A stretch of DNA of 64,000 nucleotides from Peptococcia bacterium (GCA_050951585.1 JBMNJI010000001.1:40-64039), one strand, 5' to 3'; shown: positions 7,209-56,153, counted from the stretch's first letter. Notes: generated from the letters alone by a model not told the origin. A program made the numbers and translations.

Positions 7209-7314
7209 TATGCACTAATAAAAAAAGGAAATTTACTCATACTATCCTTAATGAAGAATGAAGCGCTCTTTATTTTATCTTAGCGGTATATTTTATTCTA
7301 AAGGAGGAAAGAGC

Positions 7315-7821: not shown

Positions 7822-7884
7822 TAAAGATGTGAGGCGGGTTATTGCAAGAAAGGCCGGTTATTTTAAGAAAGGCAGGTTTTGTTG

Positions 7885-39929: not shown

Positions 39930-40063
39930 AGAAGTGCGGTTCACCCGCGAAGGCCGGTTGATAGTTTATATGAGATGAGCGGTTAACAAAAGAAGAGCGG
40001 TTCTAAATGAAGCAAAAGGGACATATACTAGCCTGTGAGATTAAAGGAAAAGGGCTGGGTGAT

Positions 40064-41698: not shown

Positions 41699-42514
41699 AT
41701 GGTTCAGAATAAATACTCTAAACGGGCATGGATTTACTGTGGAGTGGTGTTGTTGGCGTTTTCTCTGTTTATACCGGTTTTAACGAGGGAGGTAAAGGAA
41801 AGAACAAACACAACTGCAAGCGCGAGCCGGGAAGATACGGCTGAAAGTATGACCGAAAATGTGACGGAGAAGGATGCCACTGAAAAAAACGCGGCGGCAA
41901 CTGCTGAGTCTGAGAATGATGAGCTTGAGGTTGCTGAGTCTGAGGCTACTGAAACTGGGAAATATGCGCCTGAAACATATGAAACTGAGAATGCTGAGCT
42001 TGAAAATGCTAAACCGGATTTGGCGGCCGAACAGGCTGTCAAGCCCGCTGATGTGGTTCAGGAGGAGATACTGCAGCAGACTACGGAGCCTCTTCCGCAG
42101 GTAGACATCAAAGAAATAATCTGGCCACTGAAAGGCGAAGTGATTCGCGAAGTAGGCTTGTCCTATTCCCAGACCTTCAGTGATTACAGGTACCATAACG
42201 GAATCGATATCAAGGCTGAACGGGGAGCACAGGCGGTCATGAGTCTGCCGGGGAAGGTTATCAAAAAAGAGACAACCAAAGACAATGGGCTGGTGCTTAC
42301 CTTTGAGCATGGCCAGCAAGATAATGTGGTCTGGCGCAGTGTTTATGCCCATCTTAGTGAAACGATCCTTCGGGAAGGCGATTCTGTAGAAGCCGGAGCC
42401 GTCGTGGGCATTATTGATCAACCCGGATATAATGAGATTATGGAAGGACCGCATCTTCATTACAGCCTTTATCAGAATGAACAGGTAGTTAATCCGCTCG
42501 ATTATTTACCGTAA
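41699..42514 (+). CDS. spoIIQ: M23/LytM-domain membrane protein, SpoIIQ-like
   Basis: An N-terminal TM helix and an acidic E/T/A-rich linker precede a C-terminal LytM domain (YRYHNGIDI...HLHYSLY). Its position between spoIID and spoIIID matches B. subtilis spoIIQ, so the symbol rests on synteny. Confidence 0.7.
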   Translation: MVQNKYSKRAWIYCGVVLLAFSLFIPVLTREVKERTNTTASASREDTAESMTENVTEKDATEKNAAATAESENDELEVAESEATETGKYAPETYETENAELENAKPDLAAEQAVKPADVVQEEILQQTTEPLPQVDIKEIIWPLKGEVIREVGLSYSQTFSDYRYHNGIDIKAERGAQAVMSLPGKVIKKETTKDNGLVLTFEHGQQDNVVWRSVYAHLSETILREGDSVEAGAVVGIIDQPGYNEIMEGPHLHYSLYQNEQVVNPLDYLP

Positions 42515-42524
42515 CTATCCTAAC

Positions 42525-45407
42525 TTACCGTAAATTAAGAGGCATGGGGGCGGTGTAGATATCATCATACATATCGCCCCAAATTTTCACTGTCTTTAGC
42601 TTGCAGATGTAAAGGCCGTTTTTACCGGCGTATTCGACGCGAATGCGCACCGTATAATCGCCGTCTTTGTCATCGGGGCTGGTGTAATGCTTCCTTTCAT
42701 AGATGGTTTCGCCATCCTTAAAGGTATAACGGGTGGCCGGTAACATCCAGGTACATGGGCCTGTTTTGTCAGCGCGGCCGGAGACTTGCTCCATTTCGAC
42801 GGATTTGACAAATTTGTAGTTGGGATCATAGAATTCGGCGATCACCCGGGTCGGTCCTGCATAGGTGCCGCCAATGGGCCGGGCGGTATCCCCGAGACCG
42901 TCAGGCACTTTCGTTTCCCAGTCGTTTTGGTAGTTGGTTACTACGGTGACTTCAAAGCCGTAACCGGCCCGGGTAATCTCGTTAGGGTCAACCGGGGTGC
43001 GCAGTTTTTTGGAGAGCTCCTCGGCATAAGGGATGATTTCCCAGGAACCACGGCTTTCCCGGTCGCTTTTTTTCGGGTTTTTAGGGTCAGTGGGAATACC
43101 TTGTTTCGTATTAACGCTGACATCAAATTCGAGAGACTCGTTGTAGGTAACAGTAACGGGTTCCCAAATCGGATTATTATAGTCTGTCACTGTGCGCGTA
43201 ACAGTGCGTGTAATAGGATTACCGTTTTCATCTGTCCCGTCAGTCACCGTATCATGGACGGTTCTGGTATGATAGCCGGTAATAATGTGGTAAGTCACAT
43301 CCCAACTGGCGTGGTCTAAGGGTTCACTGCAACTCCGCTGAATATGTTTATTCACCGTAATATATCTTTCCATAAAGTTGTTCGCTCTGTTTTCATCGGG
43401 AATCAACTGGGCCGGATCGGCAATGACGGCAAGATTAACGATATCTTCGCGGTCGGGAGCACGCCAGGCAAAGGAAAGAGTCTTCGTTTCTCCCAAGGCA
43501 AAGGAGACTTTTTCTTCCCGAATTACTTTGCCGTCTTCCTGCCACTCGATTAAGGCTTCCGGGATCGCTTGCCCCGTATTATTCGCAATGACGGTTTCGA
43601 TATTTTGCACTTTTCCGGCGTCGGTAGGGGTAACGACCGCAAGGGAGATTACCGCCAGATCGTGCGTATTCTTGTTAAGCTCAAGGGCGGCAGTGTTATC
43701 CAGGCGGGGCTTGATTTCCGCGGTGATTTCCTCAGGATGCCCTTCGGGATTGATGGTCGCTTGATAGAGCAAACTGCCTGATGGAGGCACTTCAACCGTC
43801 CAAGGGGCAACAGTTTGTGTTTCACCGGCGGCGAGGGTAACGGTGCCGCCGGGAATAACGGCTCCGTCCGGGGTGGTAAGGATGATGGGGATATTTGTAT
43901 AGTCTTCCGTGGAGGTATTTTCAACCGTGAAGCGGAAAGTCACTTTTTCCCCTGGCGCATATTCTTTATCTTCGGCTGCTTCTAAAGAAACCGCTTTAAA
44001 GTTGAGCGGCTTTTCCGCTTGATAGGCATGCATGATGCCTTGTCCATCCGTAATCAAGAGGTAGGAGTCGGCGATAACCATCTCCGGAGAGACACTACCC
44101 GCATCGACCGGAAAGAGCTGGGCCGCTTCTTTGACTGCGTTTTCCTTTTTATCATAGAACCAGGGCACCGGCTCCAGTGTTTCGCCATCTAAGACCCAGG
44201 CCGTGCCATCATAGGCAAAGACAAAAACATAATCCTGCTCCGCTTCCGGTGACGGTTTCCAGTAGAGCAGATTGGATTTGAGGATGGAATTGAAGGGACG
44301 GACCCTGTGGGTAAGGCCTGTTTCTTTATCCACGGCGATCACTGCCCCCGGCCCGCCGTAGGAGTAGTTGTTGTAATGCTGTAGCGGCAGGTAAATGTAT
44401 TTACTGCCGATGACCGGCGACATGATGTTGTAGCTGTTAAGCGGGCGGTTGAAGTCGAAATCTCCGGGCTCCTCGGGGTTTACCCATACACGATTAATTT
44501 CGTGTTCGCTTTTATTTAATATTTATAAATGCAACCTCCTCTATCGGCTACATAGATGTAATTTTCTTCTGCTGCGGGGGAACCAGGAACGCCTAAGTTG
44601 ACGTTAGTGTTTATTAAGGTAAATGTATTTTTGTCAGGTAAATATCTGATAAGCAGTGATTCTTTGTTTTGTGTGTTTTCAGTTCCTACTATCATCCCAT
44701 TATGAAAGATGGGAGAGCCTGTTACTTCTCCATCCATATGTCCTCTAAAAGCAAGCTTTGCTTTGAAGCCTAAATCCTGAACAACAAAAAAGCCGTTATC
44801 AGCGTACTGCCCGGGCAACCCTGTAGCATCTCCATTTGCGGTTCCAATGGCTATATATGTCCGATGATTATGAATAAAGACAAAGGGACTGGCGGTTACA
44901 CGATATCTTTTTTGGTAACTATCACCGTTTTCGATCAGTTGTCAGAATTAACGGTTGGTCCCAAATAGGGTTGAATGTAACAGGATCTATTGCCCAGAGC
45001 CGATGGTCACGGGTAGCCTGATAGATTCGCGGTGCATGAGTAGTTTCCGCATAAGTCGGTGAAGAACCGGAAGGCAGCTCATGCTGGTTTACGGTGATAC
45101 GACCAAGGATATTGCCATCTTCCAGTGAGAGCTTTACTAGGTCTTTTCCGGCCTGAACGTAGATATGACCATCAACCACAATGGGTTGGCTATTCACTTT
45201 CCCTTGTAAATTACATGTCCAGGCTTCGTGAAAGGGCAGTCCTGTTTCCGTAAAACTGTCTTTAATTTGCCTGGAATTGTATTCATCAATCGCAAAGCGA
45301 GGTGCAGCAGCAAAAGCCGGCAATGTATTTGCCGGCAAGATGCTTGTTAGGATATAGAACATTATTAATATTAATGCCGATAGTTTATGGAATCGATGTA
45401 GCTTCAT
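42525..45407 (-). pseudogene. disrupted paralog of the 959-aa secreted beta-propeller/CARDB-like protein (two frameshifts)
   Basis: Three consecutive ORFs (44922-45407, 44516-44818, 42525-44423) are collinear with the N-terminal, middle and C-terminal parts of the intact gene at 48928-51807. There is one extra base near 44933 and one missing base near 44517-44525. The first and third ORFs share a frame and the middle one is shifted. Confidence 0.9.
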
Positions 45408-46234
45408 TAATTATTACCCCCTCGCAGGTAAGCAGCCCATTCTTCCGGTGTTAATAGTTTCCGATTATTCCCCGGCTTTTCGTTAATCTCTACTTTTCTT
45501 TCCCCCTCAATCCAGTCAACCTTAAAATCAAGAGCTTCAGACAAAGCCCGTAATGGCAGAAGGGTTCGGTTATTTTCAATAACCGGAGCGACGTCGGAAG
45601 TCTTTAATTCGTCGATTAAGCCTGTGATAACCCGAAAGTTATTTTCCCCGATACGAAAGACGATCGTTTTACCGGCACGGTCCGTAGCGGTTACGGTACG
45701 CTCTTCCTCATTCCATTTTACTTCTGCCTGGACATCCGGATGTTCGAAGATGGCCCGGAGCGGCACCATTGTCCGTCCTTGAATGATAATCGGCTTTTGA
45801 TCAGGGAAATCCACTTGCTTACCATTAATGAAAACACTTACTTCAGCAGCAATTGGGGCAGGTTGCACAGAATCTTCGGGGAATTGATAATTCCCACCAA
45901 CATGCTGGATTACCCCACCATATTTTGCCCATTTGGTATTTTCAATTGGGACGCCATTGACGTGGGTTATGCGACGAATATATGTCTGATTTGTAGTCCA
46001 TATACCTTTTAATGTTATTTCTATTGCTTCATCTACTGTTATATCAGGATAATTATATATTGCAAAGGTTCCTGTTCCTTTCATACCATTAGCATGCCAA
46101 AACTCCAGAGTATAATCTGCAATTTTATATCTTTCCACCACATCCTCATACCCGGGCAAGACAGCCCAAGTTCCTGTTGTTCCCGCTATTGTCAATATAA
46201 AGGCAAACAGTAAGCCTATTGCGGCTTTTTTCAT
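45407..46234 (-). CDS. secreted protein: unknown N-terminal domain plus copper amine oxidase N-terminal-like domain (paralog P1, full length)
   Basis: Signal peptide MKKAAIGLLFAFILTIAGTTGTWA. The C-terminal half (VFINGKQVDFPDQKPIIIQGRTMVPLRAIFE...VAPVIENNRTLLPLRALSEALDFKVDW) is the Cu_amine_oxidN1 fold repeat. Its stop overlaps the start of the downstream large (pseudo)gene. Confidence 0.85.
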   Translation of the reverse strand: MKKAAIGLLFAFILTIAGTTGTWAVLPGYEDVVERYKIADYTLEFWHANGMKGTGTFAIYNYPDITVDEAIEITLKGIWTTNQTYIRRITHVNGVPIENTKWAKYGGVIQHVGGNYQFPEDSVQPAPIAAEVSVFINGKQVDFPDQKPIIIQGRTMVPLRAIFEHPDVQAEVKWNEEERTVTATDRAGKTIVFRIGENNFRVITGLIDELKTSDVAPVIENNRTLLPLRALSEALDFKVDWIEGERKVEINEKPGNNRKLLTPEEWAAYLRGGNN

Positions 46235-46270
46235 TATCGAATACCCCCTTAAACTGATACTACTTCTACT

Positions 46271-46299
46271 ATTTTACAGAAATATAGTATTAATTACAA
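46271..46299 (-). promoter_or_regulatory. conserved sigma-A-type promoter of P1
   Basis: On the minus strand, TTGTAA, a 17-nt spacer, then TAAAAT. The 5' UTR and the RBS aaggggg are conserved. The same block recurs upstream of P2, P3 and P4. Confidence 0.55.
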
Positions 46300-46426
46300 C
46301 CTTTTCTAAAATCAGCCATCATGCATAAAACCTGCATATAACATATCTCTTAAACATATTTCACCCATCATCATGCCGTTTCATTAATTCTTCATGGGAC
46401 ATGAGTTTAGAGCCGTTGTAGGGCAT

Positions 46427-46486
46427 GCTGGTGACATGGATGGTATTTATACTCACGTGGTAATAAATTCTTTAGACCAGTATACG
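46427..46486 (+). pseudogene. ~55-nt relic of the DUF234 ATPase gene fused to the 3' end of P2
   Basis: ctggtgacatggatggtatttatactcacgtggtaataaattctttagaccagtatacgcc aligns with nt ~48497-48556 inside the ATPase gene (ccggcgacatggatggtatttatactcacgtggtaaaaaactctttagatcagtttacatcc). Confidence 0.8.
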
Positions 46487-47251
46487 CCCCGGCTTTTCGT
46501 TAATCTCTACTTTTCTTTCCCCCTCAATCCAGTCAACCTTAAAATCAAGAGCTTCAGACAAAGCCCGTAATGGCAGAAGGGTTCGGTTATTTTCAATAAC
46601 CGGAGCGACATCGGAAGTCTTTAATTCGTCGATTAAGCCTGTGATAACCCGAAAGTTATTTTCCCCGATACGAAAGACGATCGTTTTACCGGCACGGTCC
46701 GTAGCGGTTACGGTACGCTCTTCCTCATTCCATTTTACTTCTGCCTGGACATCCGGATGTTCGAAGATGGCCCGGAGCGGCACCATTGTCCGTCCTTGAA
46801 TGATAATCGGCTTTTGATCAGGGAACTCCACTTGCTTACCATTAATGAAAACACTTACTTCAGCAGCAATTGGGGCAGGTTGCACAGAATCTTCGGGGAA
46901 TTGATAATTCCCACCAACATGCTGGATTACCCCGCCATATTTTGCCCATTTGGTATTTTCAATGGGCACTCCATTGACGTGGGTTATGCGACGAATATCT
47001 TTTTGATTTGTAGTCCATATACCTTTTAATGTTATTTCTATTGCTTCATCTACTGTTATATCAGGATAATTATATATTGCAAAGGTTCCTGTTCCTTTCA
47101 TACCATTAGCATGCCAAAACTCCAAGGTATAATCTGCGATTTTATAACTTTCCACCACATCCTCATATCCGGGCAAGACAGCCCAAGTCCCCGTCGTTCC
47201 CGCTATTGTCAAAATAAAGGCAAACAGTAATCCTATTGCGGCTTTTTTCAT
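46472..47251 (-). CDS. copper amine oxidase N-domain secreted protein, paralog P2 (C-terminus replaced by fusion junction)
   Basis: Nearly identical to P1 until ...VEINEKPG. It then reads into the ATPase relic (RILV*) and loses the last ~20 aa found in P1 and P3. Confidence 0.7.
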   Translation of the reverse strand: MKKAAIGLLFAFILTIAGTTGTWAVLPGYEDVVESYKIADYTLEFWHANGMKGTGTFAIYNYPDITVDEAIEITLKGIWTTNQKDIRRITHVNGVPIENTKWAKYGGVIQHVGGNYQFPEDSVQPAPIAAEVSVFINGKQVEFPDQKPIIIQGRTMVPLRAIFEHPDVQAEVKWNEEERTVTATDRAGKTIVFRIGENNFRVITGLIDELKTSDVAPVIENNRTLLPLRALSEALDFKVDWIEGERKVEINEKPGRILV

Positions 47252-47288
47252 TATAGAATACCCCCCTTAAACTGATACTACTTCTACT

Positions 47289-47317
47289 ATTTTACAGAAA
47301 TATAGTAATAATTTCAA
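47289..47317 (-). promoter_or_regulatory. conserved promoter of P2
   Basis: On the minus strand, TTGAAA, a 17-nt spacer, then TAAAAT, in the same conserved upstream block as P1. Confidence 0.5.
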
Positions 47318-47420
47318 CCTTTTCTAAAATAGCCATCATGCAAACGCATACTTAGTTTAAGCTCATCATCATGCCGTTTCATTAATTCTTCATGGATCAT
47401 GAGCTTTGAGCCTTTTGCGC

Positions 47421-47450
47421 TTGACGGCAGGTAATTAATGTACATATAAT
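47421..47450 (+). promoter_or_regulatory. near-consensus sigma-A promoter of the DUF234 ATPase gene
   Basis: TTGACG (47421-47426), an 18-nt spacer, then TATAAT (47445-47450). A 9-bp inverted repeat tatcaaatc (47454-47462) / gatttgata (47480-47488) lies between the -10 element and the RBS aaggagg. Confidence 0.6.
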
Positions 47451-47510
47451 TTTTATCAAATCAAGATTATACTAAACACGATTTGATAAAAGCCAAGGAG
47501 GCCGGTTCAG

Positions 47511-48920
47511 ATGTTTATCGGCAGAGAGAATGAGCTGAATTTTTTGGAGAACAAATACCTCTCCCAAGGTGGTCAACTTATTGTGATGTATGGCCGCCGC
47601 CGTGTTGGGAAGACCGAAACCTTGCGTAAATTTTGCGAAGGAAAAAGCCATGTCTTCTATTCCTGTACAGAATGTACAGACGAACAGCAACTCAAAGCCT
47701 TTAGTAGCAGGATGCTCATGGCGAATGTTCCGGCGGCCAAATATGTCCGGGAGTTTTCAGACTGGGAGCAGGCGCTTGCTTGTGTGTCTGAATTGCCCGC
47801 GGAAAGGAAAAAACTGCTGGTTATTGACGAGTTTCCCTATATGATAAAAAATAATGCTTCCATCCCTTCCATACTGCAAAAATTATGGGATGAGAAGCTA
47901 AAAGATGAAAATGTGATGATTATTCTCTGTGGTAGCGCCATGTCTTTTATCGAAAACGAAATCTTAGCAGAAAAGAACCCCTTATACGGAAGAGCTACCG
48001 GTATCCTAAAAATGAGCGAAATGAATTTCTATGAGGCGATTCAATTCTTCCCTCATTACTCATTATTGGATCAGATTCATGCTTATGCCATCTTAGGGGG
48101 CATCCCGCACTATTTAAAACAGTTTGACGATGAGCAATCACTGGAGGAAAATATCAAGGCCAATATTCTACAAAGAGGGAGCATCCTTTATTCCGAAGTG
48201 GAATTTCTGATGCGACAGGAGTTACGTGAGACCACTGTCTACAACACCATTATTGGAGCGGTTGCTTTAGGAAATACGAAGCTTAATGATATTTACCAAA
48301 AAACACAGATAGAAAAAAGCAAGCTGGCGGTGTATCTGAAAAACCTCATGTCTCTTGGGATTATCGAAAGGGAATTTCCCGTTTCCGATGGTCTTAAAAA
48401 TCAGGCAAATATCCAAAGAGGGTTATACCGGATTACCGATCACTTTTTCCGTTTTTGGTATGCTTTCGTTTTCCCCAATATCTCGGAGCTGGAAGCCGGC
48501 GACATGGATGGTATTTATACTCACGTGGTAAAAAACTCTTTAGATCAGTTTACATCCGGTATCTTTGAGTTGATTTGCCGCGAATATTTACGCCGTCAAA
48601 ACAGACAAGGAAAGCTTCCTTTTCGTTTTACCAAAATCGGGCGCTGGTGGAACAAGACAGATGAACTTGATATCATGGCAACTGATCTGGAGATGACTAA
48701 TTTTCTCTTAGGCGAATGTAAATTTAAAAATAGTGTCTTTAATTTGCATGATCTAAACAATATGTTATTCAAATTCAAGCCAGGTAAACAGACAGCTAAA
48801 GTCTATTACTATCTTTTTTCCAAAAGTGGCTTTAGCGAGGAGCTTATAAATGCTGTTGAAGGGCAAAAAAGTGGGTATAAAAATATTAGGCTGGTGACAT
48901 TGGAGCAATTGATGGAATAA
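47511..48920 (+). CDS. P-loop ATPase, archaeal-type ATPase domain plus DUF234-like C-terminus
   Basis: 469 aa. MFIGRENELNFLENKY...LIVMYGRRRVGKTETL (Walker A), LLVIDEFPYM (Walker B) and the C-terminal ...IGRWWNKTDELDIMA... region are typical of the Arch_ATPase/DUF234 family. Confidence 0.85.
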   Translation: MFIGRENELNFLENKYLSQGGQLIVMYGRRRVGKTETLRKFCEGKSHVFYSCTECTDEQQLKAFSSRMLMANVPAAKYVREFSDWEQALACVSELPAERKKLLVIDEFPYMIKNNASIPSILQKLWDEKLKDENVMIILCGSAMSFIENEILAEKNPLYGRATGILKMSEMNFYEAIQFFPHYSLLDQIHAYAILGGIPHYLKQFDDEQSLEENIKANILQRGSILYSEVEFLMRQELRETTVYNTIIGAVALGNTKLNDIYQKTQIEKSKLAVYLKNLMSLGIIEREFPVSDGLKNQANIQRGLYRITDHFFRFWYAFVFPNISELEAGDMDGIYTHVVKNSLDQFTSGIFELICREYLRRQNRQGKLPFRFTKIGRWWNKTDELDIMATDLEMTNFLLGECKFKNSVFNLHDLNNMLFKFKPGKQTAKVYYYLFSKSGFSEELINAVEGQKSGYKNIRLVTLEQLME

Positions 48921-48927
48921 CCTCGTT

Positions 48928-51807
48928 TTACCGTAAATCAAGGGGCAGAGGTGCGGTGTAGATATCATCATACATATCGCCCCAGATTTTCACCGTCTTT
49001 AGCTTGCAGATGTAAAGGCCGTTTTTACCGGCGTATTCGACGCGAATGCGCACCGTATAATCGCCGTCTTTGTCGTCGGGGCTGGTGTAATGCTTCCTTT
49101 CATAGATGGTTTCGCCATCCTTAAAGGTATAACGGGTGGCCGGTAACATCCAGGTGCACTCGCCCGTTTTGTCAGCGCGGCCGGAGACTTGCTCCATTTC
49201 GACGGATTTGACAAATTTGTAGTTGGGATCATAGAATTCGGCAATCACCCGGGTCGGTCCTTCATAGGTGCCGCCAATGGGCCGGGCGGTATCCTCGAGC
49301 CCGTCAGGCACTTTCGTTTCCCAGTCGTTTTGGTAGTTGGTTACTACGGTGACTTCAAAGCCGTAACCGGCTCGGGTAATCTCGTTAGGGTCAACCGGGG
49401 TGCGCAGTTTTTTGGAGAGCTCCTCGGCATAAGGGATGATTTCCCAGGAACCACGGCTTTCCCGGTCGCTTTTTTTCGGGTTTTTAGGGTCAGTGGGAAT
49501 ACCTTGTTTCGTATTAACGCTGACATCAAATTCGAGAGACTCGTTGTAGGTAACAGTAACGGGTTCCCAAATGGGATTATTATAGTCCGTAACCTGGCGC
49601 GACACCCTTTGGGTAATCGGGGCGCCGTTTTCATCCGTTCCCACAGTTACCGTATCATAGACTGTTCTGGTATGATAGCCGGTAATAATGTGGTAAGTCA
49701 CATCCCAACTGGCTCTGTCTAAGGGTTCTTTGCAACTCCGCTCGACATGTTTATTCACCGTAATATATCTTTCCATAAAGTTGTTCGCTCTGTTTTCATC
49801 GGGAATCAGCTGGGCCGGATCGGCAATGACGGCTAGATTGACGATATCTTCACGGTCGGGAGCACGCCAGGCAAAGGAAAGAGTTTTGCTTTCCCCCAAG
49901 GCAAAGGAGACTTTTTCTTCCCGAATTACTTTGCCGTCTTCCTGCCACTCGATTAAGGCTTCCGGGATCGCTTGCCCCGTATTATTCGCAATGACGGTTT
50001 CGATATTTTGCACTTTTCCGGCGTCGGTAGGGGAAACTACCGCAAGGGAGATTACCGCCAGATCGTGCGTATTTTTGTTAAGCTCGAGTGCGGCCGTGTT
50101 ATCGAGGCGGGGCTTGATTTCCGCGGTGATTTCCTCAGGATGTCCTTCGGGATTGATGGTCGCTTGATAGAGCAGACTGCCTGATGGAGGCACTTCAACC
50201 GTCCAGGGGGATACAGTTTGTGTTTCACCCGCGGCGAGGTCAACGGTGCCGCCGGGAATAACGGCTCCGTCCGGGGTGGTAAGGATAATGGGGATATTTG
50301 TATAGTCTTCCGTGGAGGTATTTTCAACCGTGAAGCGGAAAGTCACTTTTTCTCCCGGGGCATATTCTCTATCTTCGGCTGCTTCTAAAGAAACCGCTTT
50401 AAAGTTGAGCGGCTTTTCTGCTTTATAGGCATGCATGATGCCTTGTCCATCCGTAATCAGGAGGTAGGAGTCGGCGATAACCATCTCCGGAGAGACACTG
50501 CCCGCATCGACCGGAAAGAGCTGGGCCGCTTCTTTGACGACATTTTCTTTTTTATCATAGAACCAGGGCACCGGCTCCAGTGTTTCGCCATCTAAGACCC
50601 AGGCTGTGCCATCATAGGCAAAGACAAAAACATAATCCTGCTCCGCTTCCGGTGACGGCTTCCAGTAGAGCAGATTGGATTTGAGGATGGAATTGAAGGG
50701 GTGGACCCTGTGGGTAAGGCCTGTTTCTTTATCTACGGCAATCACCGCCCCCGGTCCGCCGTTGGAGTAGTTGTTGTAATGCTGTAGCGGCAGGTAAATA
50801 TATTTACTGCCGATCACCGGTGACATGAGGTTGTAGCTGTTAAGCGGGCGGTTGAAGTCAAAATCTCCGGGCTCCTCGGGGTTTTTCCACACACGATTAA
50901 TTTCGTGTTCGTTTTTATTTATATATTTATAAATACAACTTCCCCTATCTGCTACATAGATATAGTTTCCTTCTGCTGCGGGAGAACCTGGAACACCCAA
51001 ATTGACGTTAGTATTTATTAGAGCGAATTTACTTTCTTCGAGTAAATATCTAATAAGTAATGACTCCTTATTTTGACTGTTTTCCGTCCCAATAATCATT
51101 CCATTATGAAAGATAGGCGATCCAGTTACTTCTCCATCCATTTTTTGATTAAGAATACTTACTGCTCGAAATCCTAAATCCTGAATAATAAAGAAACCGT
51201 TATCAGCGTACTGCCCGGGCAACCCAGTAGCATCACCATTTGCGGTTCCTATGGCTATATATGTCCGATGATTATGAATAAAGACAAAGGGACTGGCGGT
51301 TACACGATATCTTTTTTTATAGCTGTCACCGTTCTCGTCAGTAGACAGAATTAACGGTTGGTCCCAAATAGGGGTAAAAGTAGATGGGTCTATTGCCCAG
51401 AGCCGGTGGTCACGGGTAGCCTGATAAATCCGCGGGGCATGAGTGGTTTCTGCATATGTTGGCGATGAACCGGAAGGTAGCTCATGCTGGTTTACGGTGA
51501 TGCGGCCGATAATTTTGCCGTCTTCCAGTGAGAGCTTTACTAGGTCTTTTCCTGCTTGAACGTAGATATATCCATCAACCACAATGGGTTGGCTATTTAC
51601 CTTCCCCTTTAAATCACAGGTCCAGGCTTCGTAAAAGGGCAGCCCTGTTTCCGTAAAACTGTCTTTAATTTGCCTGGAATTGTATTCATCAATCGCAAAG
51701 CGGGGCGCAGCAGCAAAAACCGGCAAGGTATTTGCCGGCAAGATGCTTGTCAGGATATATGCAAATAATATCAATACCGATACGATATGAATTCTACATA
51801 ACCTCAT
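48928..51807 (-). CDS. large secreted protein: signal peptide, PQQ/BamB-like beta-propeller, two CARDB-like Ig domains, unassigned ~330-aa C-terminal domain (intact copy)
   Basis: 959 aa. The N-terminal signal ends ...PVFAAAP. Propeller-like repeats are present (KVNSQPIVVDGYIYVQAGKDLVKLSLEDGKIIG, GSPIFHNGMIIGT, NYIYVADRGSCIYKY, LLITDGQGIMHAY). CARDB-like segments are present (VTFRFTVENTSTEDYTNIPIIL...; DLAVISLAVVSPTDAGKVQNIETVIANNTGQAIPEALIEW...LSFAWRAP...IADPAQLIPDENRANN). I cannot place the C-terminal domain, which ends ...GLYICKLKTVKIWGDMYDDIYTAP. Confidence 0.85.
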   Translation of the reverse strand: MRLCRIHIVSVLILFAYILTSILPANTLPVFAAAPRFAIDEYNSRQIKDSFTETGLPFYEAWTCDLKGKVNSQPIVVDGYIYVQAGKDLVKLSLEDGKIIGRITVNQHELPSGSSPTYAETTHAPRIYQATRDHRLWAIDPSTFTPIWDQPLILSTDENGDSYKKRYRVTASPFVFIHNHRTYIAIGTANGDATGLPGQYADNGFFIIQDLGFRAVSILNQKMDGEVTGSPIFHNGMIIGTENSQNKESLLIRYLLEESKFALINTNVNLGVPGSPAAEGNYIYVADRGSCIYKYINKNEHEINRVWKNPEEPGDFDFNRPLNSYNLMSPVIGSKYIYLPLQHYNNYSNGGPGAVIAVDKETGLTHRVHPFNSILKSNLLYWKPSPEAEQDYVFVFAYDGTAWVLDGETLEPVPWFYDKKENVVKEAAQLFPVDAGSVSPEMVIADSYLLITDGQGIMHAYKAEKPLNFKAVSLEAAEDREYAPGEKVTFRFTVENTSTEDYTNIPIILTTPDGAVIPGGTVDLAAGETQTVSPWTVEVPPSGSLLYQATINPEGHPEEITAEIKPRLDNTAALELNKNTHDLAVISLAVVSPTDAGKVQNIETVIANNTGQAIPEALIEWQEDGKVIREEKVSFALGESKTLSFAWRAPDREDIVNLAVIADPAQLIPDENRANNFMERYITVNKHVERSCKEPLDRASWDVTYHIITGYHTRTVYDTVTVGTDENGAPITQRVSRQVTDYNNPIWEPVTVTYNESLEFDVSVNTKQGIPTDPKNPKKSDRESRGSWEIIPYAEELSKKLRTPVDPNEITRAGYGFEVTVVTNYQNDWETKVPDGLEDTARPIGGTYEGPTRVIAEFYDPNYKFVKSVEMEQVSGRADKTGECTWMLPATRYTFKDGETIYERKHYTSPDDKDGDYTVRIRVEYAGKNGLYICKLKTVKIWGDMYDDIYTAPLPLDLR

Positions 51808-52634
51808 TAGGCATTATCTCCTTTCAGATAAACGGCCCATTCTTCCGGTGTTAGTAGTTTCCGTTTATTCCCCGGCTGCTCGTTAATTTCTACTTTTCTT
51901 TCCCCCTCAATCCAGTCAACCTTAAAATCAAGAGCTTCAGACAAAGCCCGTAAAGGCAAAAGGGTTCGGTTGTTTTCAATAACCGGAGCCACGTCGGAGG
52001 TCTTTAAGTCGTCAATTAAGCCTGTGATTACCCGAAAGTTGTTTTCCCCGATACGAAAGACAATCGTTTTCCCGGCACGGTCCGTCGCGGTTACGGTACG
52101 CTCTTCCTCATTCCATTTTACTTCCGCCTGCACATCCGGATGTTCGAAGATGGCCCGGAGCGGAACCATTGTTCGTCCTTGAATGATGATAGGCTTTTGA
52201 TCAGGAAATTCCACTTGCTTACCATTGATGAAAACAGTAACCTCCGTGGCAATTGGGTCAGGTTGTACAGGATCGTCGGGGAATTGATAGTTCCCGCCCA
52301 CATGCTGGATAACGCCACCGTATTTTGCCCATTTGGTATTTTCAATGGGCACCCCATTGACGTGGGTTATGCGACGAATATCTTTTTGATTTGTAGTCCA
52401 TAAGCCTTTTAACACTATTTCAATTGCTTCATCAACTGTTAATCCAGGATATTCATATATTGCAAAGGTGCCAGTTCCTTTCATTCCATTTGCATGCCAA
52501 AACTCCAAGGTATAATCTGCTATTTTCTCGTAGGAAATTGAATTCTCATACCCAGGCAAGACAGCCCAAGTCTCGGCCGTTCCCGTTATTGTCAAAATAA
52601 AGGCAAACAGTAAGCCTATTGCGGCTTTTTTCAT
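51807..52634 (-). CDS. copper amine oxidase N-domain secreted protein, paralog P3 (full length, coupled to the intact large gene)
   Basis: 275 aa with the same architecture as P1. Its stop and the start of the 959-aa gene overlap as TAATG on the minus strand. Confidence 0.88.
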   Translation of the reverse strand: MKKAAIGLLFAFILTITGTAETWAVLPGYENSISYEKIADYTLEFWHANGMKGTGTFAIYEYPGLTVDEAIEIVLKGLWTTNQKDIRRITHVNGVPIENTKWAKYGGVIQHVGGNYQFPDDPVQPDPIATEVTVFINGKQVEFPDQKPIIIQGRTMVPLRAIFEHPDVQAEVKWNEEERTVTATDRAGKTIVFRIGENNFRVITGLIDDLKTSDVAPVIENNRTLLPLRALSEALDFKVDWIEGERKVEINEQPGNKRKLLTPEEWAVYLKGDNA

Positions 52635-52670
52635 TATGGAATACCCCCTTAAACTGATACTACTTCTACT

Positions 52671-52699
52671 ATTTTACAGAAATATAGTAGTAATTACAA
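52671..52699 (-). promoter_or_regulatory. conserved promoter of P3 and the large gene
   Basis: On the minus strand, TTGTAA, a 17-nt spacer, then TAAAAT, with the conserved UTR and RBS. Confidence 0.55.
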
Positions 52700-52829
52700 C
52701 CTTTTCTAAAATTAGCCATCCTGCAAAAACATTTCCCTTAAACATATTTGCTACCTCATCATCCCGTTTCATTAATCCTTCATTAGTCATGGGTTTTGAG
52801 TCAGTTCCTTAACGACAGGTAAATAATAT

Positions 52830-53120
52830 AATTTTATCAAATCAAGATTATACTAATCACGATTTGATAAGGGCAAAGGAGGCCGGTTTTAGTTGTTCTC
52901 CGGCTTTTCGTTAATCTCTACTTTTCTTTCCCCCTCAATCCAGTCAACCTTAAAATCAAGAGCTTCAGACAAAGCAATTTTATCAAATCAAGATTATACT
53001 AATCACGATTTGATAAGGGCAAAGGAGGCCGGTTTTAGTTGTTCTCCGGCTTTTCGTTAATCTCTACTTTCCTTTCCCCTCAATCCAGTCAACCTTAAAA
53101 TTAAGAGCTTCAGACAAAGC
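52830..53120. repeat. tandem duplication (146 nt + 145 nt) of a chimeric junction: ATPase-gene leader fused to the 3' end of a P gene
   Basis: The unit is aattttatcaaatcaagattatactaatcacgatttgataagggcaaaggaggccggttttagttgttctccggcttttcgttaatctctac...cagacaaagc. It occurs at 52830-52975 and again at 52976-53120 with two small differences. Confidence 0.9.
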
Positions 53121-53807
53121 CCGTAATGGCAGAAGGGTTCGGTTGTTCTCAATAACCGGAGCAACATCGGAGGTCTTTAATTCCTCAATTAAGCCTGTGA
53201 TAACCCGAAAGTTATTTTCCCCGATACGAAAGACGATCGTTTTACCGGCACGATCCGTAGCAGTTACGGTACGCTCTTCCTCATTCCATTTTACTTCCGC
53301 CTGGACATCCGGATGTTCGAAGATGGCCCGGAGCGGCACCATTGTCCGTCCTTGAATGATAATCGGCTTTTGATCAGGAAATTCCACTTGCTTACCATTA
53401 ATGAAAACACTTACTTCAGCAGCAATTGGGACGGGTTCCACAGAATCTTCGGGGAATTGATAATTTCCACCAATATGCTGGATTACACCGCCATATTTTG
53501 CCCATTTGGTGTTCTCTATCGGTTCTCCGTTGACGTGGGTTATGCGGCGAATGTATGTCTCGTTCATTGTCCAACACCCTTTTAACGTTTGTTCGATTAC
53601 TTCATCATTTGTATAACGTGTACTTTTATATATTGGAAAAATTCCTGTTACTTTCATGCCATTAGCATACCAAAACTCCAAGGTATAGTCTGCAATTTTA
53701 TAACTTTCCACCACATCCTCATACCCGGGCAAGACAGCCCAAGTTCCTGTTGTTCCCGCTATTGTCAAAATAAAGGCAAACAGTAAGCCTATTGCGGCTT
53801 TCTTCAT
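53064..53807 (-). CDS. copper amine oxidase N-domain secreted protein, paralog P4 (divergent N-domain, C-terminal frameshift)
   Basis: 247 aa. The segment KVTGIFPIYKSTRYTNDEVIEQTLKGCWTMNETY differs from P1-P3. A 1-nt deletion in the run ctacttt(t)c changes the end to ...WIEGKGK*. Confidence 0.7.
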   Translation of the reverse strand: MKKAAIGLLFAFILTIAGTTGTWAVLPGYEDVVESYKIADYTLEFWYANGMKVTGIFPIYKSTRYTNDEVIEQTLKGCWTMNETYIRRITHVNGEPIENTKWAKYGGVIQHIGGNYQFPEDSVEPVPIAAEVSVFINGKQVEFPDQKPIIIQGRTMVPLRAIFEHPDVQAEVKWNEEERTVTATDRAGKTIVFRIGENNFRVITGLIEELKTSDVAPVIENNRTLLPLRALSEALNFKVDWIEGKGK

Positions 53808-53843
53808 TATGGAATACCCCCTTAAACTGATACTGCTGCTACT

Positions 53844-53872
53844 ATTTTACAGAAATATAGTATTAATTACAA
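53844..53872 (-). promoter_or_regulatory. conserved promoter of P4
   Basis: On the minus strand, TTGTAA, a 17-nt spacer, then TAAAAT. Confidence 0.5.
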
Positions 53873-54054
53873 CCTTTTCTAAAATTAGCCATCACACATT
53901 GAGCGATATATCAGCACCTACTCAGATGAACTGAAAGCAAACGGATATGAATTGCTTAAAGGTAAAAAACTACAGGCATTTATAGCCGCGTATGATGCCA
54001 CATTTGCGACCGACATTAATGTCGGTCACAAAATCCGTTCAAACTATTATAAAT

Positions 54055-54231
54055 CCAGTATGTGCCTGTTCCTGTAATACCATTAGCATACAAGAATTCA
54101 ACAGTATAATCAGCTATTTTATATTGCTTCACCATATCCTCATATCCGGGCAAGACAGCCCAAGTTTCTGCCGTTCCCGCTATTGTTAAAATAAAGGCAA
54201 AAAGTAATCCTATTGCGGCTTTTTTCCCCAA
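54055..54231 (-). pseudogene. 5' fragment of a fifth P paralog (P5)
   Basis: It encodes only (L)GKKAAIGLLFAFILTIAGTAETWAVLPGYEDMVKQYKIADYTVEFLYANGITGTGTY, after which homology stops. ATG is replaced by TTG and the conserved promoter block is absent. Confidence 0.75.
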
Positions 54232-54326
54232 CTTGACTAATATTGGAAGTTTGCTTATAATAAAAATAAAAATGTGATTTTTACACGCAAACTATGTATA
54301 ATAATGTGATTTTGGAGGCGGGGCGT

Positions 54327-55676
54327 ATGGAAAGACTGATTATGAAAAGCCTGCTGGATTGGAAAAAGTCTAATTATCGAAAACCGCTTATTTTAAAAGG
54401 TGTTCGTCAGGTTGGTAAGACATGGCTTCTCAAGGAGTTTGCCAAACATCACTATGGCAACATTGCTTATTTCAACTTTGATGAGCACCCGGAATATAAG
54501 CAGTTTTTTGAAAGTACCAAGGATGTGGAGCGCATTCTGCAAAACTTAATGATGGCCAGCGGGGAAGTGATCAAGCGCGACAGTCCGGAGGATACGCTCA
54601 TTGTTTTTGATGAAATCCAGGAATGCCCCAACGCGCTCAACACGCTGAAATATTTTTGTGAGAACACTCCCCATTATCATGTGGCTTGTGCTGGCTCTCT
54701 CTTAGGGATAGCCTTATCGAAGCCTGCCTCCTTCCCGGTTGGCAAAGTGGACTTCCTGGAAATCCTGCCCATGACCTTTACCGAATTTTTATTGGCCAAT
54801 GGTGACGAAAATCTTGTTGCTTACCTGGACAGCCTCGAAAAAATTGAGCCGATCCCGGAGGCGTTTTTTAATCCCTTGTCTGAAAAGCTGAAAATGTATT
54901 TTGTGACCGGTGGGATGCCAGAATCCGTTCGCTCCTGGACACAAGAGCGCAATGTTGAATTGATGCAGCAGGTCTTATTAAATATCCTCGGAGCGTATGA
55001 GCGTGATTTTGCCAAACACCCCGAGCCCAAGGACTTTCCGAAAATATCGCTGATCTGGAAGTCTATTCCTTCCCAATTGGCCAGAGAAAATAAGAAGTTT
55101 ATCTATAAAGCGGTAAAAGAAGGTGCCAGGGCTAGAGAATACGAAGATGCCCTGCAATGGCTTTGCGATGCCAACCTGACTTATAAAATCTACCGCAGTA
55201 CTGCGCCGGGCCTGCCTCTTTCAGCCTACGATGATTTATCTGCTTTTAAACTATACATGGCGGATGTGGGACTGTTACGCAGGCTGTCCCTCCTGGCACC
55301 TTCAGCCTTTGGCGAGGGCAACAGACTGTTTGTGGAGTTTAAAGGGGCCTTAAGTGAAAACTATGTCCTGCAGGCGTTGCAGCACCAGTTTGAAGCCACG
55401 CCCCGTTATTGGACGATGGAAAATCCAAGGTATGAAGTGGACTTTCTTATTCAAAGGGAAAACGATATTTTACCGGTAGAGGTTAAGGCAGAAAGTAATG
55501 TTGAAAGTCGGAGCTTAAAAAAATACAAGGAAAAATACGGGGATAAGGTAAAGTTGCGCATTCGTTTTTCCTTAAATAACCTGCGCATTGATGAAGATGT
55601 GTTAAACATCCCGCTGTTCATGGCTGATTATGCCGACAAGCTTATCGGGATGGCGCTGGAACAGTTACAAGTTTAA
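54327..55676 (+). CDS. P-loop ATPase, AAA_14 plus DUF4143 family
   Basis: MERLIMKSLLDWKKSNYRKPLILKGVRQVGKTWLLKEF (Walker A) and LIVFDEIQECP (Walker B) are present. The C-terminal ...YEVDFLIQRENDILPVEVKAE... is the restriction-endonuclease-like DUF4143 end. ATG 54327 follows ggagg. Confidence 0.85.
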   Translation: MERLIMKSLLDWKKSNYRKPLILKGVRQVGKTWLLKEFAKHHYGNIAYFNFDEHPEYKQFFESTKDVERILQNLMMASGEVIKRDSPEDTLIVFDEIQECPNALNTLKYFCENTPHYHVACAGSLLGIALSKPASFPVGKVDFLEILPMTFTEFLLANGDENLVAYLDSLEKIEPIPEAFFNPLSEKLKMYFVTGGMPESVRSWTQERNVELMQQVLLNILGAYERDFAKHPEPKDFPKISLIWKSIPSQLARENKKFIYKAVKEGARAREYEDALQWLCDANLTYKIYRSTAPGLPLSAYDDLSAFKLYMADVGLLRRLSLLAPSAFGEGNRLFVEFKGALSENYVLQALQHQFEATPRYWTMENPRYEVDFLIQRENDILPVEVKAESNVESRSLKKYKEKYGDKVKLRIRFSLNNLRIDEDVLNIPLFMADYADKLIGMALEQLQV

Positions 55677-55770
55677 AAATTTGGTGAAACTTTATGAGGT
55701 CTGCTTGCATTTTTTCGGAATCCTCTCATATACATTTAATGAAATGAAAGGTACGTGTGGAGGGGAGAAA

Positions 55771-56028: not shown

Positions 56029-56153
56029 CAAGATAATTAATACTTTAATATTTTTAATTGAAAACAGCCAATGAAAAAGAAGGAAATGGAGGTAAATATG
56101 TAGAATAAGGCTGTAAGAATGACAAAATGCGGGCGGGGGCAGGTGGATGTTTT

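Follow-up and report, generated by a model that had tools for sequence, protein, structure and literature searches.

The stretch of DNA from an uncultured Peptococcia bacterium analysed here (64,000 nt, hereafter the window) carries, between positions 42515 and 55770, genes for secreted proteins and two P-loop ATPases, inserted into a group of conserved sporulation genes. A preliminary description had placed the atp operon, murA, spoIID and a spoIIQ-like gene on one side and spoIIID, mbl and two rod genes on the other, in the order of Bacillus subtilis, and our ORF and domain calls agree with it on both sides. On the left, spoIID (40007–41110; TIGR02870 match, 336 bits), with murA and the atp operon upstream, is followed by the gene of a membrane-anchored M23 peptidase in the SpoIIQ position (41699–42514, plus strand; PF01551, 1.6e-18), whose M23 domain spans residues 165–266 and whose N-terminus is visibly hydrophobic. 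Its score of 41.5 bits is below the cut-off of 250 of the NCBIfam SpoIIQ equivalog, a model named for the Bacillus type; the synteny spoIID-M23-spoIIID is kept in four lineages, including L014, L069 and L071. On the right, an intact spoIIID (55774–56028, plus strand; TIGR02844) precedes an MreB/Mbl gene and two rod genes, the latter recognized by synteny with L014. Between spoIID and the M23 gene lies a solitary NTP_transf_2 nucleotidyltransferase gene (41244–41570, minus strand; Pfam annotation on identical contigs) with a weak match to PADLOC PDC-S09. It is missing from L014, L015 and L069, where spoIID directly adjoins the M23 gene, and is a separate small insertion outside the array described below.

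Genes of the interval

Both of the ~2.9-kb genes for a large secreted protein that had been described previously are present, the first of them carrying two frameshifts. Copy B (48928–51807, minus strand) is intact and encodes 959 aa, comprising a signal peptide, an eight-bladed beta-propeller, a pair of Ig-like CARDB domains and a C-terminal domain that contains a beta-hairpin of ~35 residues. The predicted structure (pLDDT 82.7) combines a BamB/YxaL-like propeller with Ig-like domains; its N-terminal ~430 residues superpose on the eight-bladed PQQ-like beta-propellers of BamB and YxaL with target-normalised TM-scores of 0.65–0.77, a likeness limited to the propeller and to 10–15% identity, to which the window protein adds the two Ig-like domains and the C-terminal domain. 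YxaL is a secreted protein of Bacillus. For the C-terminal domain we found no structural match; precomputed matches to PXO2_28_C (PF27438) fall on it and are mostly faint, and a local copy of Pfam gave no PF27438 match to the window protein. This domain is, however, 50% identical to that of a CARDB protein from the Paenibacillus plasmid pY5S7-2. Copy A (42525–45407, minus strand) carries two indels that disrupt its frame, +1 at ~44934 and −1 at ~44518; they compensate each other, and the frame-corrected gene has zero internal stops. These frameshifts could be assembly errors. The two copies differ in a mosaic manner along the gene (dN/dS 0.15, dS 0.16–0.74).

The small secreted-protein gene, for which five copies or fragments had been counted, occurs six times, as four full ORFs and two fragments. 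The long form s1A (45407–46234, minus strand, 275 aa), whose stop codon overlaps the start of large gene A by 1 nt, encodes a signal peptide, an N-terminal domain without a known family and a Cu_amine_oxidN1 "stalk" domain, and its counterpart s1B (51807–52634, minus strand, 275 aa; promoter 52699–52671) is translationally coupled to large gene B. The short forms are s2A (46472–47251, minus strand, 259 aa), with a sigmaA-like promoter of its own at 47317–47289, and s2B (53064–53807, minus strand, 247 aa), with a promoter at 53872–53844. One fragment (52893–52975, minus strand) represents the 3' end of a small gene and lies inside a 146-nt tandem duplication (52830–52975/52976–53120); the other (54049–54225, minus strand) retains codons 2–60 without the ATG and delimits the array on the right. 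Every small gene is preceded by a sigmaA-like promoter according to the consensus (TTGTAA or TTGAAA, 17 nt, TAAAAT), a feature kept also in the homologous loci L017 and L018. Between small paralogues dN/dS amounts to 0.02–0.25 in the mature protein (dS up to 1.1) and reaches 0.47 in the 24-codon signal peptide. All copies in the array evolved under purifying selection, and both the small and the large proteins, which have signal peptides, are probably exported.

The gene for a DUF234/ATPase_2 P-loop ATPase (47511–48920, plus strand) lies between the two sets and is transcribed divergently from the small genes. The intervening sequence contains a palindrome, TTATCAAATC...GATTTGATAA (47453–47491), a candidate operator near a promoter-like site (47421–47450). 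L018 keeps the palindrome upstream of its small gene, and in the window relic copies of it occur at 52832–52870 and 52978–53016. The second ATPase, of the DUF4143/AAA_14 type (54233–55676, plus strand), has its own promoter (54233–54261) and lies next to spoIIID. Both proteins match candidates from PADLOC over their full length: the DUF234 protein PDC-S27 (187 bits, 1.7e-55, residues 2–413) and the DUF4143 protein PDC-S01 (596 bits, 7.5e-180, residues 12–449). PDC-S27 and PDC-S01 are themselves no more than candidate phage-defence genes. Each of the two ATPases is encoded by a single gene that has its own promoter and is situated in a variable region. The two ATPases had been called unrelated; they do belong to different families, but since both match AAA_14 and ATPase_2 this wording is too strong.

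The reported lack of an integrase, transposase or tRNA in 42515–55770 was borne out by homologue, profile and tRNA searches: we found no recombinase or transposase homologue in the interval, no tRNA within or adjoining it, no Rfam match in the whole 64-kb window, and neither att sites nor a target duplication nor a recombinase at the array. The GC content varies from 0.38 to 0.52 inside the interval and from 0.43 to 0.54 in the flanks, with no clear compositional break, and the GC skew in the region switches sign with gene orientation. The junction between the M23 gene and the large gene is present in 10 independent metagenome contigs (98.8–100% identity), all of which end 38–238 nt inside the repeat, and the right side (53773–56035) is reproduced by contig L070 at 98.7% identity. 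The array is fixed across the sampled members of the species. The window contig has to cross a 6.4-kb repeat and therefore probably derives from a long-read assembly.

Locus states in relatives and array history

Comparison with related lineages confirmed that accessory DNA interrupts the order spoIID-spoIIQ-spoIIID-mbl, as the array is missing at this position in L014, L015/L069 and L071. It did not support a single 13-kb insertion. In the distantly related L071 the M23 gene is followed by 165 nt, a DUF4143 gene and spoIIID, with no other gene in between, and homology to the window restarts at 54246 (in L069, at 54233). In L014 the M23 gene and spoIIID are separated by only ~330 nt, which include a ~100-nt relic of the 3' end of the DUF4143 gene; here homology to the window ends at 42514 and restarts at 55572. 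Because of this relic and the arrangement in L071, the DUF4143 unit must have been resident at the site earlier, and the inserted array is therefore ~11.7 kb long (42515–~54232). L014 is a deletion derivative and not a pristine empty site; the array could have been present before its lineage separated from that of the window, and L014 could then have lost it.

The sister species L015/L069 present a third state, in which ~140 nt separate the M23 gene from spoIIID, and spoIIID itself is split at codon ~36 by a 6.7-kb element. Its cargo includes a DUF4143 ATPase 90–91% identical to that of the window, an N6 methylase and a 536-aa serine recombinase; imperfect inverted repeats occupy its ends, and joining of the sequence would restore the spoIIID frame. 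This layout matches that of skin (sigK), SPbeta (spsM), vfbin, vrin, gin (gerE) and yin (yabG), as judged from sequence: a mother-cell sporulation gene is split and a large serine recombinase is found at one end. Among the interrupted sporulation genes listed in the publications consulted, spoIIID does not appear. The window, unlike the skin-like elements, has no split gene, no recombinase and no att inverted repeats. The relatives show that the spot between the M23 gene and spoIIID, as well as spoIIID itself, has repeatedly attracted foreign DNA.

At the left junction (42515–42533) a 10-nt spacer separates the M23 gene from large gene A, which faces it with its stop-codon end. The 9-mer TTACCGTAA, noticed previously on both sides of this spacer (42506–42514 and 42525), is indeed repeated and occurs also at 48928, at the end of the second large gene (shuffle expectation 0.36 per window). 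It belongs to the 3' end of the large gene itself, being found in copy B and in the homologue L017 too, and the M23 gene of L014 already ends in CTACCCTAA, a 7/9 match. Microhomology at the junction is possible, but the proposal that the repeat reflects the insertion event is not demonstrable.

The interior of the array is repetitive: segments 42525–46564 and 48928–52975 are 89.6% identical, reflecting duplication of the operon with a period of 6.4 kb, and the small-gene cassettes are 85–94% identical to each other. Between s1A and s2A lies a 59-nt relic of the DUF234 gene (46427–46485, plus strand; codons ~328–352). The copies differ by 4–25% along their length, and this divergence is coherent at the codon level, so they are real paralogues. 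We infer that after its arrival the array was enlarged and rearranged by unequal homologous recombination, together with gene conversion and deletions. The ~1-kb small-gene cassettes and the ~3-kb large genes would have served as recombination partners, and the two-unit 6.4-kb repeat, the truncated cassettes, the DUF234 relic and the one frameshifted large gene may be what such events left behind.

The small-large gene pair in other genomes

The arrangement by which we recognize the accessory pair, namely a Cu_amine_oxidN1 gene immediately preceding one whose product has CARDB and a PXO2_28_C-type C-terminal domain, was found, and it recurs elsewhere: the large gene is preceded by a small one in 20 of the 26 loci with enough upstream sequence. 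L011 shares both the 1-nt stop/start overlap and the order short small, long small, large; L013 has the overlap with a single small gene, and L017 and L018 have two small genes upstream. The chromosomal surroundings of the module vary and are unrelated, including gltX/feoB...ligT/radC (L018/L012), smpB (L013) and PNPOx/SOD (L017).

In more distant relatives, homologues of the pair are linked to Tad genes, as in L011, L025, L036, L037, L040, L043 and the Paenibacillus amylolyticus plasmid pY5S7-2. In the latter, the order is a T2SS/T4P ATPase, two TadB/C-like proteins, a small pilin-like ORF, DUF4320, RcpC/CpaB, a giant FN3 protein, the Cu_amine_oxidN1 protein and the CARDB protein, and this type of organization is found also in L011, L036, L040 and L043. 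Compared to such Tad/Flp (type IVc) clusters, the window keeps only the last two gene types, in amplified form, in 64 kb without pilus machinery: neither tblastn with the L011 proteins nor an HMM search revealed any Tad gene or T2SSE ATPase, respectively, in the window. With respect to a Tad/Flp pilus, the two proteins may be components, an anchor or unrelated neighbours. Of the 22 loci flanked by 8 kb or more of sequence, only 5 showed Tad genes, so a description as "pilus accessory" may fit only part of the family.

A further parallel is offered by conjugative plasmids of the Bacillus cereus group, whose tra region encodes a "cell surface protein", CDS26 of pAW63 (homologue #027 in pXO2 and #024 in pBT9727), which is large and secreted and lies three small CDSs from a VirB11/T2SSE-type ATPase, with small membrane proteins nearby (PMC1196294). 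The family name PXO2_28_C suggests a pXO2 ORF of this region. In pXO2 the gene is split by a frameshift as well (PMC1196294), like large gene A here. On the other hand, CDS26 is a 1416-aa Rhs-like protein, as opposed to the propeller and CARDB N-terminus of the window protein, and, unlike CDS26, whose function is itself putative, the window gene lies on a chromosome, with neither an ATPase nor tra genes nearby.

A probable composite accessory region

We regard the interval as probably a composite accessory region, neither a single element nor a single system. An unlikely alternative is a decayed integrative element whose recombinase, att sites and pilus genes have disappeared, either a serine-recombinase element targeting spoIIID or a segment of a Tad-bearing ICE or plasmid. 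It would account for the similar (90–91% identical) DUF4143 ATPase in the 6.7-kb element of L015/L069, for DUF4143 homologues at 90% identity in IMG/VR contigs (the copy in L075 adjoins tandem serine recombinase genes), for the small-large homologues within plasmid Tad clusters and for three different states of the locus in three lineages. However, homologues of the recombinase and methylase were not found in the window, the att inverted repeat of L069 left no relic there, spoIIID and the M23 gene are whole and no spare spoIIID fragment was found. The DUF4143 unit is the sole part common to the window and the L069 element; it is situated upstream of the spoIIID promoter, outside the gene, and occupies the same place in L071, which is free of the element. 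Moreover, the array terminates on the right within a small gene, at codon 2, a break that resembles illegitimate recombination or deletion rather than site-specific recombination.

It seems still less probable that the small, large and DUF234 genes form one system, for instance a regulated or defence surface module, coupled via the palindromic operator between divergent promoters. L018 does repeat the divergent arrangement (77% aa identity), including ~250 nt of intergenic sequence with the palindrome, despite its different context, relics of the DUF234 promoter, palindrome and gene accompany the cassettes, and the DUF234 protein matches PDC-S27. Yet PDC-S27 is defined as a single-gene candidate, no PADLOC match was found for the small or large protein, and DUF234 accompanies the module in only 1 of 51 loci elsewhere, that of the nearest relative L018, where an aa identity of 73–77% to the window makes shared descent a sufficient explanation of the linkage, although it could also reflect function. 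The "gene combination" of the preliminary description does not constitute a functional unit: the pair is a conserved operon elsewhere, DUF234 joins it only in L018, and DUF4143 accompanies it in 0 of 51 loci.

We consider it very unlikely that the array forms a fixed component of the sporulation locus, encoding for example spore-surface or engulfment proteins co-regulated with spoIIQ and spoIIID. Its position between two mother-cell/forespore genes, its fixation in the sampled members of the species and the purifying selection on its copies would fit such a role, but it is missing at this position in the lineages compared, its genes are on the strand opposite to the sporulation genes, its promoters match the sigmaA consensus and homologous modules reside in non-sporulation contexts and on plasmids. 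Finally, a chimeric or mis-collapsed contig, a thought invited by the MAG origin of the sequence, the breaking of every short-read assembly at the repeat and the two frameshifts in one large copy, has a negligible probability given the 10 contigs across the left junction, L070 across the right one and the coherent 4–25% divergence of the copies.

In the composite reading that we prefer, the array (42515–~54232) would be a lineage-specific insertion between the M23 and DUF4143 genes. It would constitute an "orphan" surface-protein operon of short and long stalk genes and the large protein, with the divergent DUF234 gene alongside, in which each stalk gene would be expressed from its own sigmaA-type promoter and the long one would be coupled translationally to the large protein. 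The small and large proteins would be exported and most likely form a cell-surface complex. Their homologues appear to be standard parts of Tad-like (CpaF/TadB/TadC/Flp/DUF4320/CpaB) clusters on Firmicutes chromosomes and plasmids, from whose machinery the pair would be uncoupled in the window. The two ATPases would be independent passengers such as occur in defence islands, with DUF4143 having reached the site before the array. A lineage-specific array together with two stand-alone ATPase genes is an ordinary accessory island, and, judging from domain content and the neighbours of the homologues, the small and large proteins most likely act as a surface adhesin or pilus accessory.

Borders and composition of the spoIIQ-spoIIID interval

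Three components make up the interval at 42515-55770: an array of a surface-protein operon, a DUF234 ATPase linked to the lineage and a DUF4143 ATPase of greater age. These genes do not constitute a single system. On its left lie the atp operon, murA, spoIID (TIGR02870), a solitary nucleotidyltransferase gene on the opposite strand and a gene for a membrane-anchored M23 peptidase (41699-42514), and on its right spoIIID (55774-56028, TIGR02844), an MreB/Mbl gene and flagellar-rod-type genes. The M23 gene occupies what we take to be the position of spoIIQ in other endospore formers (gene orders of C. difficile and B. subtilis); its product scores 41.5 bits against the NCBIfam SpoIIQ model, below the 250-bit cut-off, and the putative label "SpoIIQ-like" rests on synteny. 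All gene contents listed for the interval in the preliminary description were found in the window, with corrections to counts and integrity: the small secreted-protein gene is present in multiple copies and fragments, namely four full ORFs and two fragments rather than five, and both copies of the large secreted-protein gene exist, although copy A is broken by two indels. The reported absence of mobility genes held, as no recombinase, transposase or methylase homologue was found in the interval, and tblastn searches of the window with the recombinase and methylase of a sister-species locus (L015) and with all Tad proteins of another locus (L011) gave no match. The proposal of an accessory insertion is right in outline, since three related lineages lack the array here, but the interval is composite and not a single 13-kb insertion.

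An assembly artefact is ruled out by independent contigs. Ten metagenome contigs from different samples encode an identical M23 protein followed by 38-238 nt of the large-gene 3' end (98.8-100% identity), all of them ending at the repeat, and a JGI contig (L070) corresponds to window positions 53773-56035 at 98.7% identity. Because the junctions recur in independent contigs, the island is fixed in the species wherever it has been sampled.

The array is absent from the syntenic position in a related Peptococcia MAG (L014), in a much more distant lineage (L071) and in a sister species (L015 and L069). In L014, whose M23 protein is 59% identical to that of the window, homology stops at the M23 stop codon (42514) and restarts at 55572, where a relic of ~100 nt of the DUF4143 3' end can be aligned with the window sequence as well as with the intact L069 gene; since it keeps this relic, L014 is a deletion derivative rather than a pristine empty site. 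In L071 (SpoIID 40%, Mbl 65% amino-acid identity) the order is spoIID, M23, 165 nt with a terminator, DUF4143, spoIIID and mbl, and in the sister species spoIIID follows the M23 gene after ~140 nt. A match to L016 (Lachnospiraceae) was discarded as spurious low-complexity similarity to the M23 N-terminus.

At the right border, homology of the DUF4143 unit (54233-55676) begins at 54233 in comparison with L069 and at 54246 with L071, position 54233 coinciding exactly with the -35 box of a promoter-like site (TTGACT-17-TATAAT). The array itself closes with a piece of a small gene (54049-54225) that is truncated at codon 2 and has lost its ATG. The inserted array therefore measures ~11.7 kb (42515 to ~54232), and the DUF4143 unit does not belong to it but has resided at the site for longer. 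A 30-nt near-perfect palindrome at 54003-54032 (GACCGACATTAATGTCGGTC core), between the promoter of the last short small gene (s2B) and the 5' small-gene fragment, may represent a hairpin of the terminator type or a scar left by recombination.

The 9-mer TTACCGTAA, previously noted twice at the left junction as possible microhomology, is present there (42506 and 42525) and occurs a third time at 48928; the shuffle expectation for the window is 0.36. The copies at 42525 and 48928 are the last two large-gene codons and the stop, read on the other strand. The same large-gene end is found in a homologue in an unrelated context (L017), and the M23 gene of L014 ends in CTACCCTAA. The two joined sequences were already similar before joining, and microhomology-mediated joining is possible.

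Three further features of the flanks deserve mention. The solitary NTP_transf_2 nucleotidyltransferase gene (41244-41570, minus strand), which has a weak PADLOC PDC-S09 match and no HEPN partner, separates spoIID from the M23 gene, while these two directly adjoin in L014, L015 and L069; it marks another small insertion in this neighbourhood, independent of the array. A further Cu_amine_oxidN1 gene at 60658-61272 (plus strand, 204 aa), with a stalk domain 38% identical to those of the island small proteins, is syntenic with L014:15241-15855 and is thus a conserved core paralogue outside the island. The only ARAGORN call in the window, a 100-nt "tRNA-Gln" at 63781-63880, is probably false; an Rfam search of the whole window at gathering thresholds found no tRNA and nothing else.

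The secreted-protein array and its relatives

The small proteins combine a Sec-type signal peptide, visible in the sequence, with a ~105-residue domain that matches no family and a Cu_amine_oxidN1 "stalk" domain (6e-39). Full-length relatives were found only among proteins of Peptococcia, Desulfitobacteriaceae and Clostridia metagenomes, and a sequence search against the PDB gave no match. The large protein carries a signal peptide and matches to PQQ_2 and CARDB, to which precomputed annotation adds PF27438 (PXO2_28_C), marked "weak" or "faint"; the intact copy is 100% identical to a database protein of a Peptococcia bacterium MAG annotated "CARDB domain-containing protein". Its AlphaFold model (pLDDT 82.7) predicts an eight-bladed propeller, which superposes on BamB and on the secreted YxaL, two Ig-like domains and a C-terminal domain, and Foldseek with the whole model returned only propeller and integrin-like multidomain matches. 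The C-terminal domain (residues 686-959; 48931-49752, minus strand), modelled alone with pLDDT 87.9, is predicted to be a beta-sandwich with a very long beta-hairpin (strands of ~27 and ~36 residues), the length of which varies among homologues. A separate Foldseek search with this domain gave no match at E<=0.001 in either the PDB or BFVD; a pore-forming reading was dropped, as the best match, the lysenin pore (E=0.02), was due only to the long hairpin. The domain occurs in only 63 of 1.84 billion representative clusters, always at the C-terminus.

In its basic unit the array has two small genes, one short (247-259 aa) and one long (275 aa), and a large gene, with the stop codon of the long small gene overlapping the large-gene ATG by one base. 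The same overlap is found in L011 and L013, and the order of two small genes recurs in L011 (257 aa and 279 aa, followed by 938 aa), L017 and L018, the nearest relative with the module; overlap and gene order are therefore ancestral and not a local accident. Self-comparison aligns 42525-46564 with 48928-52975 (89.6% over 4 kb), and the small-gene cassettes, each ~1 kb long with ~255 nt of upstream sequence included, are 85-94% identical to one another. A 146-nt segment is duplicated in tandem (52830-52975 and 52976-53120), and at 46427-46485, between two small genes, a 59-nt remnant of DUF234 survives. This pattern fits an array that would have been shaped by repeated unequal crossing-over, gene conversion and deletion.

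All small genes have the sequence TTGTAA/TTGAAA-17-TAAAAT upstream, located ~40 nt before a GGGGG ribosome-binding site and conserved in L017 and L018, from which we infer that transcription is probably vegetative and of the sigmaA type. Rfam reported nothing on the island at E<=0.1; as it was empty on both island and window, the conserved 255-nt upstream regions hold no riboswitch or leader. The DUF234 gene is transcribed divergently from an intergenic region of ~260 nt with a palindrome, TTATCAAATC...GATTTGATAA (47453-47491), which is conserved in L018 and has relic copies at 52832 and 52978.

Among the small paralogues dN/dS is 0.02-0.25 in the mature protein and up to 0.47 in the 24-codon signal peptide, with dS up to 1.1 and homogenised tracts such as the stalk domain of the first long and short genes (s1A versus s2A, dS 0.013). 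Diversifying selection for surface variation in the N-terminal domain was rejected, dN/dS there being 0.09-0.25. The two large genes, A (42525-45407) and B (48928-51807), show a dN/dS of 0.15, with dS rising from 0.16-0.18 over the 3' two-thirds to 0.48-0.74 in the 5' third. By these substitution patterns, the array paralogues are old and have been kept functional. Two indels outside homopolymers (+1 near 44934, -1 near 44518) disrupt copy A, which has no internal stop once the frame is corrected; given the constraint on the paralogues, its frameshifts are thus either very recent or assembly errors.

Outside the window, 26 loci have at least 1 kb of sequence upstream of the large-gene homologue, and in 20 of them this sequence contains a Cu_amine_oxidN1 gene of the same orientation. 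The chromosomal context of the closer relatives differs each time: in L018 and L012 the module lies between gltX-feoB-dtxR and ligT-radC, in L013 it is found with smpB and a restriction-modification/helicase island, and in L017 with PNPOx-SOD-ilvN. The module is multicopy and often decaying. The two ATPases, which the preliminary description had grouped with it, do not form a set with it: DUF4143 accompanies the module in none of 51 loci, and DUF234 only in L018, with 77% amino-acid identity and the same divergent layout, a linkage most simply explained by shared descent. The DUF234/ATPase_2 protein matches PADLOC PDC-S27 (1.7e-55). In one organism (sample ERZ724030; L065:6302-10840 and L067:10001-13488) we observed several dispersed small copies and broken large genes, with a 270-aa PQQ_2 and a 302-aa PXO2_28_C piece, adjoining an rve transposase and a helicase, or an SNF2/DUF4391/Fic/methylase cluster.

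In six loci (L011, L025, L036, L037, L040 and L043) the pair lies inside or beside a Tad-like cluster (CpaE-like ATPase, T2SSE/CpaF, T2SSF, Flp-like ORF, DUF4320 and RcpC/CpaB), and likewise on plasmid pY5S7-2 of Paenibacillus amylolyticus. Tad genes were detected in 5 of the 22 module loci with at least 8 kb of flank; none was found within the 64-kb window. L040:1044-17542 contains two back-to-back Tad-like gene sets (T2SSE, T2SSF, RcpC and DUF4320; CpaE-like ParA, an SAF domain gene, T2SSE and T2SSF) with small and CARDB/C-terminal-domain genes between them. Plasmids of the pAW63 type have a large surface-protein gene in a position similar to that of the module in Tad-like clusters: in the tra region of pAW63, CDS26 encodes a 1416-aa "cell surface protein" three small CDSs from a VirB11-like ATPase, and its pXO2 counterpart is frameshifted (PMC1196294). 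The name of the Pfam family, PXO2_28_C, may point to a link with the pXO2 region of that counterpart. Judged by gene neighbourhood, the pair would ancestrally have served a Tad-like filament system of Gram-positive bacteria as an extracellular accessory, the window copies having become uncoupled and amplified. It may act as an adhesin, anchor or mating-contact factor. We know of no member of the small-large module that has been studied experimentally.

The DUF4143 ATPase and the split spoIIID of the sister species

The DUF4143/AAA_14 protein matches PADLOC PDC-S01 (7.5e-180) and has homologues with 86-92% amino-acid identity across several Firmicutes orders, in MAGs or genomes labelled Anaerovoracaceae, Lutispora, Syntrophomonas, Sedimentibacter, Thermincola potens, Tissierellia and Desulfitobacteriaceae. 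Recent horizontal transfer, as in a recent sweep, was rejected, as synonymous sites are near saturation (pS 0.67-0.72, with 0.72 against L071; core genes slightly higher, 0.83-0.94). Between the window and L071, pN is 0.046 for DUF4143, compared with 0.233 for Mbl and 0.176 for SpoIIID. The high identity thus reflects extreme constraint, possibly combined with an older transfer. IMG/VR contigs hold copies at 90% identity, one of which (L075) adjoins tandem serine recombinase genes. Exact-sequence look-ups of the 84-aa SpoIIID protein and of the 460-aa DUF4143 ORF returned no match; the database version of the latter (P0138) has 458 aa and is 2 residues shorter.

In the window the gene (54233-55676) sits 98 nt upstream of spoIIID. 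Look-ups based on DUF4143 yielded three loci (P0139, P0140 and P0141), two of them at spoIIID: in L071 (8001-9356) the gene lies just upstream of it, and in L069 (2955-4304) inside an element that splits it. The window and the relic in L014 (10919-11010) are two more cases. This recurrent adjacency may reflect ancient synteny, recombination-mediated exchange beside the highly conserved spoIIID-mbl block, or targeting by spoIIID-specific elements.

The splitting element, of 6.7 kb, was found in L015 (Peptococcaceae UBA5356; 2232-9170) and in L069 (sample ERZ724030; 2555-9200), the latter 98.5-99.9% identical to the former. It interrupts spoIIID at codon ~36, corresponding to window positions 55872-55883, so that codons 1-36 are found 140 nt after the M23 gene and codons 34-84 6.7 kb further on. 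Its cargo comprises the DUF4143 ATPase (intact in L069), an HTH gene, a 768-aa N6 methylase and a 536-aa large serine recombinase that abuts the 3' half of spoIIID, and its ends form an imperfect inverted repeat (CCGACACCAAT...). Joined at the shared AAGCAC core, the two halves read ...VSKST(I/V)HKDMTERLP... in frame. In sequence, the layout is that of skin, SPbeta, gin and yin. The published accounts of intervening elements consulted here name sigK, spsM, spoVFB, spoVR, gerE and yabG as targets; spoIIID is not among them.

This raises the possibility, which we regard as unlikely, that the spoIIQ-spoIIID interval of this Peptococcia clade is a landing pad for large-serine-recombinase elements targeting spoIIID, the ultra-conserved DUF4143 of the window being a footprint of such traffic. 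The DUF4143 unit is all that the window has in common with the sister-species element, and a search of the window for relics of the L069 att inverted repeat found none. SpoIIID is a mother-cell regulator that in B. subtilis controls the skin recombinase. On the landing-pad reading, if it holds, skin-like developmental DNA rearrangement would have spoIIID as a new target, one acting unusually early, and cargo of the defence type would reside at a locus that undergoes rearrangement in the terminal mother cell alone.

Significance of the island

The island is a typical variable locus, in which amplified surface-protein genes and candidate defence ATPases are wedged between conserved core genes, and it alters little in the understanding of sporulation. 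Its constituents belong to known kinds: a variable island, a Tad-associated surface-protein pair and defence-candidate ATPases. Its moderate interest lies chiefly in the uncharacterised module and in what its relatives show about spoIIID. The latter provide two useful by-products, namely a sister-species spoIIID into which a serine-recombinase element carrying defence-type cargo has been inserted, and an extremely constrained DUF4143 ATPase that repeatedly neighbours spoIIID. The two-protein module, in which a stalk-domain protein is paired with a protein made up of a propeller, CARDB and a novel C-terminal domain, and which also occurs as free-standing, amplified and often decaying copies, gives research on adhesins of Gram-positive pili or mating pairs a concrete target.
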